64,000 bases of DNA. Source: Escherichia coli. GTDB lineage: Bacteria > Pseudomonadota > Gammaproteobacteria > Enterobacterales > Enterobacteriaceae. A program made the position numbers. The stretch lies in NCBI RefSeq assembly GCF_030384885.1, contig NZ_CP128613.1. The stretch is one strand, 5' to 3'. Positions 30,001-36,000 of the stretch are shown here, one piece after another; the first letter of the stretch is position 1, and every line of letters starts with the position of its first letter.

Positions 30001-33000
30001 CTCTTGACATAACTGTCAATGTCGCTGATGTATTTTTCTATTCCTGGAACATCCTTCTCACGAATCAGATGTTCCAGCGTTTCACATAACTGCTTGCCGG
30101 GTACCAGATTTAGCATGGCAAATACGCCTTTAAGACGATGAGCCGTTTGGGCTAACGCAGCAAAGTCACTGGTTGCTGCTTCAGTATACAGCCTCTTAAC
30201 ATCATCCGGTACTGTGTCTACAAAGAGCGCATAATAGCCGCTGGCATGGAGTTGCGCATTTTCATCTCCGCCCAGAGGCGATTCTGTCACCTCTTCCTGC
30301 GCCAGTTGCACTTCAATTAATTGTAAGACCGCTTCCTGCATAGCGTTGCTCATATTGAAGTTGACGCACAATTGACCAGGCCCAATTTCCCGTACGCCAG
30401 ACTCATCATCGCTTAAAAGCAAGCCAGAGGCAGTAAGATTAGACGGATTATCCGTTAAAAAGATATCATAATCTTGACTAATTAATCTTTCATCGGGTGT
30501 GATACAGGTTGCACCCCAATTTTCTAACTGGCGAGTGACAATATTCCGAATTTCTGCCGAAGTAACATCCACCATTATGCAGACATCATCCAGTAATCGT
30601 TCTTCTTCCTCTTCAACTTCCGGGTCAGCTGCGAGCATTTTGATATGCACAGAGTAGCGTGTACCAAGCCCATCCCGCGTTTTGATGTTTAAATGACCGC
30701 CCAGTTTACGTGCCAGTTGATCGCTCAGCCAGAATGCCAGCGGGTCCGCCTTGCCATAGCGATCGTTTTGGGTCTGGTTGATGAACGGGAAGTGCAAATT
30801 ATCCATTTCATGAATGCTTACGCCTTCTCCGGTGTCCAGAATGCGGAACGTCAGGCGGTCTTCGGAGGACTCATCCTGATCAACCTCAAGGGTGATTTTT
30901 CCCAATTGCGTTGAGGTCACGGCATATTGCATCAGTAGTAGCAAAATACGTCGTAAGGCATCGCGATCGCCGCGGCGCATATCGTGTGCTTTCAAATGAT
31001 TGTTAATCAGCAGTTGCAGACCTTTACGCTTGATGGCAGGCAATACTGAAGGCACAACTTCATCAATCAAATCCTGCACGGAGAACAGCTCCGTCTCACT
31101 TTTCCAGCTATCGTCCGCAAGCATATTCGCTAACTGTATTTCATCGACCAGCCGCACCAGCACATCTGCCTGATTCGCCAGTTGTTTGCCTTCCGGGGCG
31201 TTGAGTTTAGCCGCGCTCTCCGCCAGGGACTGTGCGGGTTCTTTCAGCGCATCGCCAATGTTTTTCATAAAGGTCATCCGCCCCTGCTGGTTTTTCTCAT
31301 ACAGACGCTGCGCCTGCTTGAGTTTCTTGTTTACCAGCACTTCGCGATCCTGATCGCGAATAATGAAAATTTGTGTGCGCGGCGCAACCTGGCTGCGGAA
31401 CATGCGGATCTCATACAGCTCGTTATTGATCGTCGCCTGAATAATCCCCTGATGCTGTTCCGCCATGGTGGTGATGTTTTGCAGATTCAAATGCGGCAGC
31501 AAATGATCGGCAATTTTGTTACTTATGACTGTGCGGTTCGATTCCTGATCGTGAACCAGCAGGCCGAGCGGCAGCAGTGAGACTATCTCTTCATTAATTG
31601 CCCGTAAAATGCGCAATTCGTTATTGACCGCCGTGCTGGGGACGCTTTCTGTACTGCGGCTGGAGAAATGGCAGAATGTGGTATAGCCAAATAACGCCAG
31701 CGCCAGCAAACCGATGTTCAGCAGCAGTGGCAGCAGAATGTTTTGCAACGTATCCAGCAATAAGGTGCCATAAGGAACCTGCCAGACCAGGCGCATATCG
31801 GTAGAGTTGAGTGCCGAGGAGATTTCAATCTTCGTACTGTTAAAGTGGATACTGACGCTATCCGTCCCTTCTTTCTCATTTTCATTGTTTCCCGTTGCCG
31901 TCGCGTCTGGCTCAAGGCGGAAACTGTCCAGCGGCATACCCGGTGGGATCAAATCATTAATCGGCAGATCAAAAGCAACGACCGTTGCCAGATGTCCCGG
32001 CTGGTTGAACGTGGTACGCAAGGTAAAGTAATGACCGTTCTGCCAGGCCAGGCGGCGCAGGTTAGAAAAACTTTCGCGTTCATCGAGCGCGTTGGCCTGT
32101 TGCAACATCTCTGCGCGACGTGAATCAACAATGTCGCTGACGGTCGATTCTTTAAATCCGGAGGTGAGATCTTTGAGGGGTAGGGTCGAGATCAGTACCA
32201 GACTGTTATCCTGACCATTCAGGTAATACATCGACCACGGTATATTTTCTGCGCCCCATAACGTGTCCAGATAGGTGGACATCCGTTGAGTCATCTCAAG
32301 CGTTGAGTTGTCGTGAGAGCCAAAGATTAACGCTTCCGTTTTGCGGCGTGGTTTTTCCAGATAGTAGACATCCTGTTTCAGGCGCGTCTCTTGTAAACCT
32401 TCGCCGGAGGAGGGGGAAGTCGTCGCGGCAATGTTGTCGTAAATCTGCCAGGTCACATAACGCCAGGTATCGACGCGCTTTTGGATAGCGTGGGTAATGT
32501 CGACAATCTGGTAACTTTTATCTTTCAGCCAGGCGTTAACGGCGCTTTGTACCATTACACCCATCGTCACCAGTAACACAATGATCAACAGTAAAAAGAA
32601 GCGGGTAATGCTCCCCGGTAGGAGTGAAAAGCGGGTCGTGGCCGTTGTCTCTTTCTGACGCATTCGTGTTTATGACCTGTTAAAACTTCGCGAAGTGATA
32701 GGGCAGTATAAAGGGTACATTGTGAAATTCCAGACTCTTACCTGATTGATGATTCTCTATTCTCCCGTGATATTTATCATCCTGCATTGGGGGAAATAGA
32801 TGTACAAGCGCCATTTTGCTGTACAAATAACCGACAAAAAGCCTAACGAAATTAATTGCAAATAAACGAAGATTGCTGGAAATTATGCTGATGTTAATTA
32901 TTTGTGAAATAGTTAACAAGCGTTATAGTTTTCCTGTGGTAGCACAGAATAATGAAAAGTGTGTAAAGAAGGGTAAAAAAAACCGGATGCGAGGCATCCG

Positions 33001-36000
33001 GTTGAAATAGGGGTAAACAGACATTCAGAAATGAATGACGGTAATAAATAAAGTTAATGATGATAGCGGGAGATATTCTAGTTGCGAGTGAAGGTTTTGT
33101 TTTGACATTCAGTGCTGTCAAATACTTAAGAATAAGTTATTGATTTTAACCTTGAATTATTATTGCTTGATGTTAGGTGCTTATTTCGCCATTCCGCAAT
33201 AATCTTAAAAAGTTCCCTTGTATTTACATTCTGAAACATCTATAGCGATAAATGAAACATCTTAAAAGTTTTAGTATCATATTCGTGTTGGATTATTCTG
33301 CATTTTTGGGGAGAATGGACTTGCCGACTGATTAATGAGGGTTAATCAGTATGCAGTGGCATAAAAAAGCAAATAAAGGCATATAACAGAGGGTTAATAA
33401 CATGAAAGTTAAAGTACTGTCCCTCCTGGTCCCAGCTCTGCTGGTAGCAGGCGCAGCAAACGCTGCTGAAGTTTACAACAAAGACGGCAACAAATTAGAT
33501 CTGTACGGTAAAGTAGACGGCCTGCACTATTTCTCTGACAACAAGTCAGAAGACGGCGACCAGACCTATGTACGTCTTGGTTTCAAAGGCGAAACTCAGG
33601 TTACTGACCAGCTGACCGGTTACGGCCAGTGGGAATATCAGATCCAGGGCAATACCTCTGAAGACAACAAAGAAAACTCCTGGACCCGTGTGGCATTCGC
33701 AGGTCTGAAATTCCAGGATGTAGGTTCTTTCGACTACGGTCGTAACTACGGCGTTGTTTACGACGTAACTTCCTGGACCGACGTACTGCCAGAATTCGGT
33801 GGCGACACCTACGGTTCTGACAACTTCATGCAGCAGCGTGGTAACGGCTTCGCGACCTACCGTAACACCGACTTCTTCGGTCTGGTTGACGGTCTGAACT
33901 TTGCTGTTCAGTACCAGGGCAAAAACGGTAGCGTAAGCGGCGAAGGCATGACCAACAACGGTCGTAGCGCTCTGCGTCAGAACGGCGACGGTGTCGGTGG
34001 TTCTATCACTTATGATTACGAAGGCTTCGGTATCGGTGCTGCAGTTTCCAGCTCCAAACGTACTGATGATCAGAACAGCATTGCTTACATCGGTAACGGC
34101 GACCGTGCTGAAACCTACACTGGTGGTCTGAAATACGACGCTAACAACATCTACCTGGCTGCTCAGTACACCCAGACTTACAACGCAACTCGCGTAGGTA
34201 CTAACAACTGGGGTTGGGCGAACAAAGCGCAGAACTTCGAAGTTGTTGCTCAGTACCAGTTCGACTTTGGTCTGCGTCCGTCCCTGGCTTACCTGCAGTC
34301 TAAAGGTAAAAACCTGGGTCGTGGCTACGACGATGAAGACCTGCTGAAATATGTTGATGTTGGTGCGACCTACTACTTCAACAAAAACATGTCCACCTAC
34401 GTTGACTACAAAATCAACCTGCTGGACGACAACCAGTTCACTCGCGCTGCTGGCATCAACACCGATGACATCGTAGCTCTGGGTCTGGTTTACCAGTTCT
34501 AATCTCGATTGATATCGAACAAAGGGCCTGCGGGCCCTTTTTTCATTGTTTTCAGCGTACAAACTCAGTTTTTTGGTGTACTCTTGCGACCGTTCGCATG
34601 AGGATAATCACGTATGGAAATAAGCTTTACCCGCGTGGCACTGCTGGCTGCCGCGCTCTTCTTTGTTGGTTGCGATCAAAAACCACAACCCGCCAAAACC
34701 CACGCTATTGAAGTTACCGTTCTCGAAGGCAAAACCATGGGTACCTTCTGGCGTGCCAGCATTCCGGGCATTGACGCCAAACGCAGTGCCGAACTTAAAG
34801 AAAAGATTCAGACCCAGCTGGACGCTGACGATCAGCTGCTTTCGACCTATAAAAAAGATTCCGCGCTGATGCGCTTTAACGACTCGCAAAGTTTGTCGCC
34901 GTGGCCGGTAAGTGAAGCGATGGCCGATATCGTCACCACCTCGCTGCGCATTGGCGCAAGGACCGATGGTGCGATGGATATAACCGTCGGGCCGCTGGTG
35001 AATCTGTGGGGCTTTGGCCCGGAACAACAGCCGGTTCAAATTCCGAGCCAGGAACAAATTGATGCGATGAAAGCCAAAACCGGCTTACAGCACCTGACGG
35101 TCATTAATCAGTCGCATCAGCAATATCTGCAAAAAGACCTGCCGGATTTATATGTCGATCTCTCCACCGTCGGTGAAGGTTATGCGGCGGATCACCTGGC
35201 ACGCTTGATGGAGCAGGAAGGGATTTCCCGCTATCTGGTGTCGGTGGGCGGCGCGCTGAACAGCCGTGGTATGAACGGTGAAGGCCAGCCGTGGCGGGTA
35301 GCGATTCAAAAACCAACTGATAAAGAAAACGCGGTTCAGGCCGTGGTGGATATCAACGGTCATGGCATTAGCACCTCTGGCAGCTACCGTAACTATTACG
35401 AACTGGACGGCAAACGTCTTTCCCATGTTATCGATCCGCAAACCGGGCGTCCCATCGAACACAATCTGGTATCCGTGACGGTGATTGCCCCGACGGCGCT
35501 GGAAGCCGATGCCTGGGATACTGGCTTAATGGTACTGGGGCCGGAGAAAGCCAAAGAGGTTGTTCGCCGGGAAGGGCTGGCGGTTTACATGATCACCAAA
35601 GAAGGCGATAGCTTTAAAACCTGGATGTCGCCGCAGTTTAAAAGCTTCCTGGTGAGCGAAAAAAATTAAAGCGCAAGATTGTTGGTTTTTGCGTGATGGT
35701 GACCGGGCAGACTAAAGGCTATCCTTAACCAGGGAGCTGATGATGAAAAACGCCACATGCTTAACTGACGATCAACGCTGGCAATCTGTCTTAGCCCGCG
35801 ACCCGAACGCCGACGGCGAATTCGTTTTCGCCGTGCGCACCACGGGTATCTTTTGCCGTCCGTCTTGCCGAGCCAGACATGCCTTGCGGGAAAATGTCTC
35901 CTTCTACGCAAATGCCAGCGAGGCACTCGCCGCCGGATTTCGCCCCTGCAAACGTTGTCAGCCAGACAAAGCCAATCCCCGGCAACATCGCCTTGATAAA

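Follow-up and report, generated by a model that had tools for sequence, protein, structure and literature searches.

The canonical micF-ompC divergent regulatory region beside a rare ompC allele in Escherichia coli, with an uncommon base change in OmpR site C1

The question raised by this locus is whether the divergent control region of micF and ompC is in place next to an ompC coding sequence that differs from that of K-12, and whether it is likely to work as it does in K-12. In the 64-kb window (the whole stretch of E. coli DNA that was analysed), positions 32975-33401 proved to hold the divergent micF-ompC regulatory region in its canonical E. coli form, with 4 substitutions in 427 bp relative to K-12 MG1655. 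The micF +1 is located at 33067 on the minus strand and the ompC ATG at 33402 on the plus strand, directly preceded by base 33401, which agrees with the divergent arrangement given in the original prediction. The AT-rich separator described there is the spacer 33068-33401, which has a G+C content of 32.9% versus 51.6% for the window and has the same length (334 bp) in K-12. The complete rcsD-ompC interval (741 bp) was aligned with K-12 without gaps and contains 12 substitutions, 4 of them in 32975-33401. These four differences spare micF nt 1-71, the micF -10 hexamer, the marbox, the ompC -35 and -10 hexamers, OmpR sites C2 and C3, and the 5' UTR. Only 3 differences from K-12 were found in the 400 bp from 33000 to 33399, the minimum of the neighbourhood, while the ompC coding sequence has 10-33 in every 200-bp bin. 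micF was found at 120 species-level Enterobacteriaceae loci, and in 84 of the 120 the ompC start lies 323-342 bp from micF.

The micF small RNA gene was placed at 32975-33067 on the minus strand (93 nt) by mapping the K-12 annotation b4439 through the alignment. A match to Rfam RF00033 (MicF) was obtained at 32975-33068 on the same strand, with 116.8 bits, an E-value of 9.5e-18 and coverage of the full model (1-94 of 94), and the gathering score of this family is 79. The window micF is identical to b4439 at 92 of 93 positions, and nt 1-71 are unchanged, including the whole ompF-pairing seed. The sole difference, at 32986 in the terminator stem, is a G in the window versus an A in K-12. It replaces the G.U pair of K-12 with a G-C pair. 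The predicted folding energy of the whole micF RNA is -21.4 kcal/mol in the window (z = -5.4) and -18.5 kcal/mol in K-12, a gain in stability of about 2.9 kcal/mol. The window base agrees with the Rfam consensus, and the window micF is the majority allele of E. coli, with exact copies in 3231 of 5426 complete genomes. The terminator attributed to micF was also recovered: the terminator scan gave a hairpin at 32981-33003 (minus strand) with a 10-bp stem containing 6 G-C pairs and a 3-nt loop, followed by a U-run at 32975-32980. Among 24 micF sequences (22 distinct sequences from other Enterobacteriaceae loci, the window and K-12), the terminator pair at 32986 is G-C in 11, A-U in 10, and G-U in 3, and compensatory changes were observed in 6 of 18 micF base pairs. 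A 75-aa ORF at 32894-33121 (minus strand) overlaps micF and was set aside as a mechanical ORF.

Sequence divergence that disrupts micF-ompF pairing was also looked for, and none was seen in micF nt 1-71, which equal K-12. The 5' seed (nt 1-34) is predicted to pair with positions -17 to +11 of K-12 ompF at -27.4 kcal/mol, compared with -12.5 ± 2.8 kcal/mol for shuffled sequences, and 0 of 1000 shuffles were as good. The partner in this calculation was the K-12 sequence, as the ompF gene of the source genome lies outside the window; among 5426 E. coli genomes, 5056 have an ompF target region with at least 99% identity to that of K-12. The test of the seed against the initiation region took the place of a duplex prediction between full-length MicF and the ompF leader, which produced an over-extended duplex that was equalled or beaten by 29 of 500 shuffles. 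By analogy with K-12, MicF would be expected to be made as a transcript of about 93 nt and to repress OmpF with Hfq.

The promoter elements of micF are conserved as well. The -10 hexamer TAGAAT, read from the sequence at 33075-33080 on the minus strand (positions -13 to -8), equals that of K-12, and 4 of its 6 positions are invariant across 111 species loci. At 33073 (micF position -6), the site of a nearby substitution, the base differs from species to species (T in 56, C in 29, A in 18, and G in 7). The mar/sox/rob box, GCACTGAATGTCAAA, is located at 33101-33115 on the minus strand, 34 to 48 bp upstream of the micF +1, and is the same in K-12. It is exactly equal to the MarA ChIP-seq site reported for ompC<>micF (PMC5684230 Table 1) and is the single match in the window at one mismatch or fewer, with 0 expected.

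The repeats that had been described as OmpR-box-like correspond to the published OmpR sites C1 and C2b (PMC3945435 Table S5; PMC2586830). The quoted motif tttacattctgaaacatcta lies at 33223-33242, and gaaacatct occurs at 33233-33241 and 33254-33262, with a spacing of 21 bp. Sites C1, C2, and C3 together span 33223-33283 on the plus strand. C1 (TTTACATTCTGAAACATCTA, 33223-33242) matches the published site at 19 of 20 positions, with a T to C change at position 9 (33231), while C2 (AGCGATAAATGAAACATCTT, 33244-33263) and C3 (AAAAGTTTTAGTATCATATT, 33264-33283) match at 20 of 20 positions and equal K-12. C3 is also entered as an OmpR site of micF (PMC3945435 Table S5). Across the 111 species loci, no position of the C2 core TGAAACA is kept in fewer than 105, and none of GTATCAT in C3 in fewer than 109. 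Relative to the presumed ompC start near 33321, the three sites lie at about -98 to -79, -77 to -58, and -57 to -38. The binding of OmpR-P to C1-C3 and the osmolarity-dependent activation that would follow are carried over from experiments in K-12.

Downstream of these sites, the stretch 33232-33401 is 100% identical to K-12. The ompC core promoter occupies 33288-33316 (plus strand) and is the same as in K-12, with TTGGAT at 33288-33293, a 17-bp spacer, and GAGAAT at 33311-33316; we take these hexamers to be the ompC promoter from the established K-12 literature. It is followed by a 5' untranslated leader of about 81 nt with a Shine-Dalgarno sequence (33321-33401, plus strand), whose presumed start was placed from the position of the -10 hexamer and the K-12 literature. 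In K-12, MicC and other sRNAs target the ompC leader. The coding sequence (33402-34502, plus strand) is a full-length ORF of 366 aa without internal stops. It is indeed a variant, as had been claimed, with 92.2% amino-acid identity to K-12; the substitutions and indels occur in clusters and spare the first 48 residues. This ompC is a rare allele, since at the DNA level at least 99% identity was found in only 2 of 5426 genomes.

In this well-conserved setting, the change in C1 deserves attention. The window carries TTTACATTCTGAAACATCTA where K-12 and the published site have TTTACATTTTGAAACATCTA, and the base two positions 5' of C1 (33221) is T in the window and C in K-12. When 71-nt alleles were counted in 5426 genomes, 2834 were of the K-12 type, 1019 carried T/T, 60 carried the T/C of the window, and 89 carried C/C. 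Most likely, the T to C change is a tolerated polymorphism. The near-invariant bases of both half-sites (A33226, G33233, A33236, and A33238) are unchanged, as are the slightly more variable C33227 and C33237. At least 149 of 5426 complete genomes carry the C at 33231, in two different flanking contexts. Its persistence there speaks against a strongly deleterious effect, and the two contexts could stem from repeated mutation or from recombination that spread the base.

The alternative is that the same system has been quantitatively re-tuned, with the C1 change weakening OmpR-P binding, so that in this lineage ompC (and micF) would be activated from a different osmolarity onwards or to a different maximum. 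C1 is reported to be the high-affinity nucleating site and the first to be occupied (PMC3050692), and C is absent from its position 9 in all 18 curated OmpR sites, where T occurs in 13, A in 4, and G in 1. Across the 111 species loci, 107 have T or A at 33231 (T in 95, A in 12, C in 3, and G in 1), and in E. coli the base belongs to a minority allele in terms of both the window type and the other background. When the ompC sites were left out of the OmpR matrix, C1 scored 6.77 bits in the window versus 12.30 bits in K-12, a cost of about 5.5 bits, but this penalty comes partly from the pseudocount in a sample of 18 sites. According to published work, OmpR sites have no strong consensus and the sequence specificity of OmpR is modest (PMC3945435); the latter point also weighs against re-tuning. 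In addition, tight linkage between the promoter allele and the rare ompC allele was considered and rejected, as the former is present in 60 genomes and the latter (at 99% identity or more) in only 2. We regard re-tuning as improbable, and there is likewise little chance that the change acts as a natural cis-regulatory variant that, in a minority of lineages of E. coli, lowers OmpR-P affinity and re-tunes the osmotic control of ompC and micF.

Even less probable, and indeed hardly worth entertaining, is that the repeats are chance features of AT-rich intergenic DNA, that the micF call is spurious, and that nothing is functional beyond the ompC promoter. Several of our searches taken singly would agree with such a reading. 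Scoring with an OmpR position weight matrix, the check proposed in the original prediction, gave a divided outcome. With the matrix built from 18 curated sites (PMC3945435 Table S5), ompC sites included, C3 was the top-scoring position in the whole window (14.22 bits), but with the ompC sites left out C1-C3 were not singled out among 127,962 positions. C1 then ranked 134 (6.77 bits), with many AT-rich positions scoring as high, and C3 and C2 ranked 122 (6.97 bits) and 8214 (-4.16 bits) by a poorly discriminating matrix. In view of its poor discrimination in AT-rich DNA, the matrix was rejected as a decisive test, and we relied instead on conservation across species and on identity to footprinted sites, the stronger evidence. 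In a generic sigma-70 scan of the window, the micF and ompC promoters were both missed, and such sites were no more numerous than in shuffles. These missing calls are expected since the promoters are activator-dependent and that of ompC is weak, and they are not counter-evidence. Outside K-12, moreover, the RefSeq annotation of E. coli genomes has no feature at the position of micF. However, the Rfam score of micF exceeds the gathering threshold by 38 bits, and the region shares 99% identity with K-12 DNA that has been characterised by experiment and in which micF is annotated. The 64-kb window contains 4 copies of the 9-mer gaaacatct where 0.38 would be expected, a count reached in 0 of 100 shuffles. 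Together with the deep conservation over 111 species, the compensatory base-pair changes, and a seed-ompF duplex far beyond that of shuffles, these results already refute an explanation by chance.

Taken together, our results identify the locus as the canonical region of divergent ompC-micF control in E. coli, which very probably works as in K-12. Every cis element is present, in position, and nearly identical to K-12, and so is the potential to pair with K-12 ompF; protein binding, transcription, and regulation at the locus would follow by analogy with experiments in K-12. On that model, OmpR-P would bind the three 20-bp sites, which follow one another in tandem from about -98 to -38 relative to the ompC start, with C1 filled first and C2 and C3 occupied cooperatively as OmpR-P rises at high osmolarity. 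This occupancy would switch on the weak ompC promoter (TTGGAT-17-GAGAAT), and the divergent micF promoter would be stimulated by the same upstream region. MarA, SoxS or Rob at the marbox (-34 to -48) may further activate micF. The 93-nt MicF RNA would end at its own intrinsic terminator, and its 5' end (about 34 nt) would pair with the ompF mRNA over the Shine-Dalgarno sequence and start codon and block translation, so that OmpC would go up and OmpF down.

The neighbouring rcs genes, which encode the Rcs phosphorelay, are also complete. RcsC (26276-29125, plus strand) has 949 aa and is 99.1% identical to K-12, RcsB (29324-29974, minus strand) has 216 aa and is 100% identical, and RcsD (29991-32663, minus strand) has 890 aa and is 98.9% identical. 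All three genes are full length without internal stops, and their coordinates agree with the RefSeq annotation of E. coli 2013C-4282. The description of rcsCBD as immediately upstream is right in that they lie directly to the left in window coordinates, although rcsD is downstream of micF on the same (minus) strand. All the elements named in the original prediction were found where it had placed them. Its statement that the circuitry looks intact can be kept for the cis elements as sequence, with the reservation that C1 differs from the reference, but it is not supported beyond that level. It cannot be extended to the complete circuit, because ompR/envZ, ompF, hfq, marA/soxS/rob, and micC lie outside the window.

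The matter is thus mostly one of annotation: a standard micF-ompC-rcs neighbourhood with known cis elements beside a rare ompC allele. Judged from its sequence, the locus is ordinary and nearly K-12-like save for one uncommon base change in an OmpR-binding site. This minority variant of C1 is the only point of possible biological interest, and could offer a natural experiment on the sequence tolerance of the nucleating OmpR site. A near-identical genome is that of E. coli 2013C-4282 (NZ_CP027579.1), in which the whole 64-kb window is 99.986% identical, with 8 mismatches and 1 gap. Its ompC and its counterpart of 32975-33401 are both 100% identical to the window, and between rcsD and ompC the two sequences differ at a single position, 32720, which belongs to the rcsD-micF spacer. 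The RefSeq record of 2013C-4282 leaves micF unannotated. Compared with K-12 micF and RF00033, the window gene has the same length of 93 nt, the same divergent position beside ompC, and the same two-hairpin fold. Compared with the K-12 ompC promoter, C1-C3 are likewise tandem 20-bp sites, unchanged in their spacing and in their distance from the promoter.

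A full-length match to MicF was found at 32975..33068 (-) by an Rfam scan of the whole window (116.8 bits, E 9.5e-18; gathering score 79), and the 93-nt annotation b4439 of E. coli K-12 MG1655 (K-12), transferred through an alignment of the rcsD-ompC interval, placed micF at 32975..33067 (-). A G+C-rich hairpin of 10 bp and then a U-run form its 3' end, and the folding energy of the RNA is -21.4 kcal/mol (z = -5.4 relative to shuffles). The ompC ORF occupies 33402..34502 (+) and codes for 366 aa; the two genes are therefore divergent, and this agrees with the original prediction of a micF gene with its own terminator divergent from ompC. 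A substitution at 32986 in the terminator stem replaces the G.U pair of K-12 with G-C, changing the fold from -18.5 to -21.4 kcal/mol. This micF allele is the majority form in E. coli (exact in 3231 of 5426 complete genomes), and the pair covaries across Enterobacteriaceae (G-C 11, A-U 10, G-U 3).

Since nucleotides 1-71 of MicF are completely identical to those of K-12, divergence of the pairing region, which would count against an intact circuit, was absent on the micF side. The duplex between MicF nucleotides 1-34 and positions -17 to +11 of the K-12 ompF mRNA, with the strain's own ompF lying outside the window, was predicted at -27.4 kcal/mol, while shuffled seeds gave -12.5 +/- 2.8 kcal/mol and 0 of 1000 reached the observed value. 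Of the 5426 complete E. coli genomes, 5056 share at least 99% identity with K-12 over this target region.

The spacer between micF and ompC is 334 bp, equal in length to that of K-12, and its G+C content of 32.9% against 51.6% for the window bears out the AT-rich region that had been described. The OmpR-box-like repeats were also recovered: the 20-mer originally quoted lies at 33223-33242, the position of C1, the first of three tandem 20-bp OmpR sites, and the 9-mer GAAACATCT occurs at 33233 and 33254, spaced 21 bp (4 copies in the window, 0.38 expected). The published sites are C1 TTTACATTTTGAAACATCTA, C2 AGCGATAAATGAAACATCTT, and C3 AAAAGTTTTAGTATCATATT (PMC3945435 Table S5), and the C1 oligonucleotide is also given in PMC2586830. 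C1 (33223-33242) matches the published site at 19 of 20 positions, and C2 (33244-33263) and C3 (33264-33283) match exactly. From 33232 to the ompC ATG there is no difference from K-12, including the hexamers TTGGAT (33288-33293) and GAGAAT (33311-33316) with 17 bp between them, which we take, from the K-12 literature, to be the ompC promoter with a leader of about 81 nt. In K-12, this leader is a target of MicC and other sRNAs.

For the weight-matrix check originally suggested, a log-odds matrix was built from 18 curated OmpR sites (PMC3945435 Table S5) and run with and without the three ompC sites, which were left out of the second matrix to avoid circularity. With all 18 sites, C3 was the top window position and C1 the 13th. 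Without the ompC sites, C1 scored 6.77 bits (rank 134 of 127,962), C3 6.97 (rank 122), and C2 -4.16, and AT-rich positions often scored equally, so the matrix is a weak test of OmpR sites, which are stated to have no strong consensus (PMC3945435). Thus, it is conservation and identity to the footprinted sites that carry the case. When species-representative genomes were scanned using the micF 5' end as an exact pattern, at least 120 Enterobacteriaceae loci were recovered; among the matches listed, 84 of 120 had a strict ompC start motif 323-342 bp from micF. In 111 aligned loci, also among the matches listed, the micF seed, -10 hexamer, marbox core, ompC hexamers, and Shine-Dalgarno region were near-invariant, as were the OmpR half-site cores (A33226, G33233, A33236, G33254-A33259, G33274-A33279).

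Compared with K-12, 32975-33401 carries four substitutions (32986, 33073, 33221, and 33231). Position 33073 corresponds to -6 of the micF promoter; it does not fall within the -10 hexamer TAGAAT, and species differ freely in this column. The marbox GCACTGAATGTCAAA, the MarA ChIP-seq site for ompC<>micF (PMC5684230), has one exact copy in the window, at 33101-33115 (-), or -34..-48 from micF +1. Position 33221, two bases 5' of C1, is a common polymorphism, and its T with a K-12-type C1 was exact in 1019 of the 5426 genomes.

The uncommon change is C at 33231, position 9 of C1. As C1 is described as the site filled at low phosphorylated OmpR (OmpR-P) (PMC3050692), a quantitative effect is conceivable, and with the matrix lacking the ompC sites C1 scored 12.30 bits in K-12 and 6.77 in the window. 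Of the 18 curated sites, 13 have T at position 9, 4 have A, 1 has G, and none has C; the species alignment has T 95, A 12, C 3, and G 1 among the matches listed. However, the invariant core bases of C1 are unchanged, OmpR accepts varied sequence, and about 3% of genomes retain the C allele, which occurs with two different flanking backgrounds: the window's two-allele 71-nt stretch was exact in 60 of 5426 genomes and C on the K-12 flanks in 89, compared with 2834 for the K-12 allele. We consider a real regulatory effect of this base very unlikely.

The rcsC, rcsB, and rcsD genes are full length (99.1%, 100%, and 98.9% identity to K-12). Their placement immediately upstream holds as left in window coordinates, but in the transcriptional sense rcsD, which shares its strand with micF, lies downstream of it. 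OmpC is also full length, and the variant coding sequence that had been noted was confirmed, with 92.2% amino-acid identity to K-12, the same first 48 residues, and clustered substitutions and indels including a 4-residue deletion. At the DNA level this allele is rare: of the 5426 complete E. coli genomes, only 2 show at least 99% identity (one being the near-identical strain 2013C-4282, at 100%), 182 show 95-99%, and most show 90-95%. The promoter next to it is almost invariant. The 33000-33399 stretch was the least diverged from K-12 in its neighbourhood (3 differences per 400 bp), whereas 200-bp bins of ompC had 10-33 differences each. The rcsD-micF spacer (32664-32974), where the rcsD promoter should be located, holds 8 of the 12 substitutions that separate the rcsD-ompC interval from K-12 (2.6%, compared with 0.9% for the micF-ompC portion). 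The micF-ompC interval had no match in 50 of the 5426 complete genomes (about 1%), and a few matches were partial; in NZ_CP148453.1, only 17% of the query was covered and the match lay beneath an annotated ompC. This suggests that the locus is occasionally disrupted or rearranged in E. coli.

Elsewhere in the window, one G more than in 2013C-4282, at 48468, leaves an intact 207-aa ccmA (47938-48561). In that strain the gene is flagged by RefSeq as frameshifted, so an assembly error there may be the cause. The only ORFs in the nrdA-ubiG interval (4647-5619) are two short ones of 207 and 139 aa, which overlap, and the annotation of 2013C-4282 has a hypothetical protein, frameshifted and partial, at the equivalent place; the interval looks like a gene remnant, as K-12 has the yfaL autotransporter gene there. 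The Rfam scan also placed naRNA4 (REP/BIME-type) elements at 29238-29314 (both strands) and 41081-41163. Between rcsC and rcsB, whose 3' ends converge, the gap is filled by a direct repeat of about 90 nt (29115-29203 and 29228-29317; copies 91% identical) and is locally diverged from K-12 (14-15 differences per 200 bp). A tRNA gene at 58102-58175 (-) is tRNA-Pro in the 2013C-4282 annotation, and an L25 ribosomal-protein leader (61893-61918) lies upstream of rplY.

The window is E. coli DNA and is 99.986% identical to 2013C-4282 (NZ_CP027579.1 198845-262843) over all 64 kb, with 8 mismatches and 1 gap. Gene coordinates (atoSC, rcsC, rcsB, rcsD, ompC, apbE, ada, alkB, yojI) equal those of its annotation, and 32975-33401 is identical; the only local difference is at 32720, within the rcsD-micF spacer. 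Strain 2013C-4282 is an isolate from human stool in the USA. The cis anatomy of the micF-ompC region is clear, and the claim of intact control circuitry was upheld at the sequence level, with the cis elements present and the trans factors outside the window. From K-12 work we infer its binding, transcription, and regulation: OmpR-P would occupy C1 first, then C2 and C3, activating ompC and the divergent micF; MarA, SoxS, or Rob would act on micF via the marbox, and MicF would block ompF translation. The best explanation is that the region would work by this K-12 mechanism, and it is an already known system in its ordinary state.
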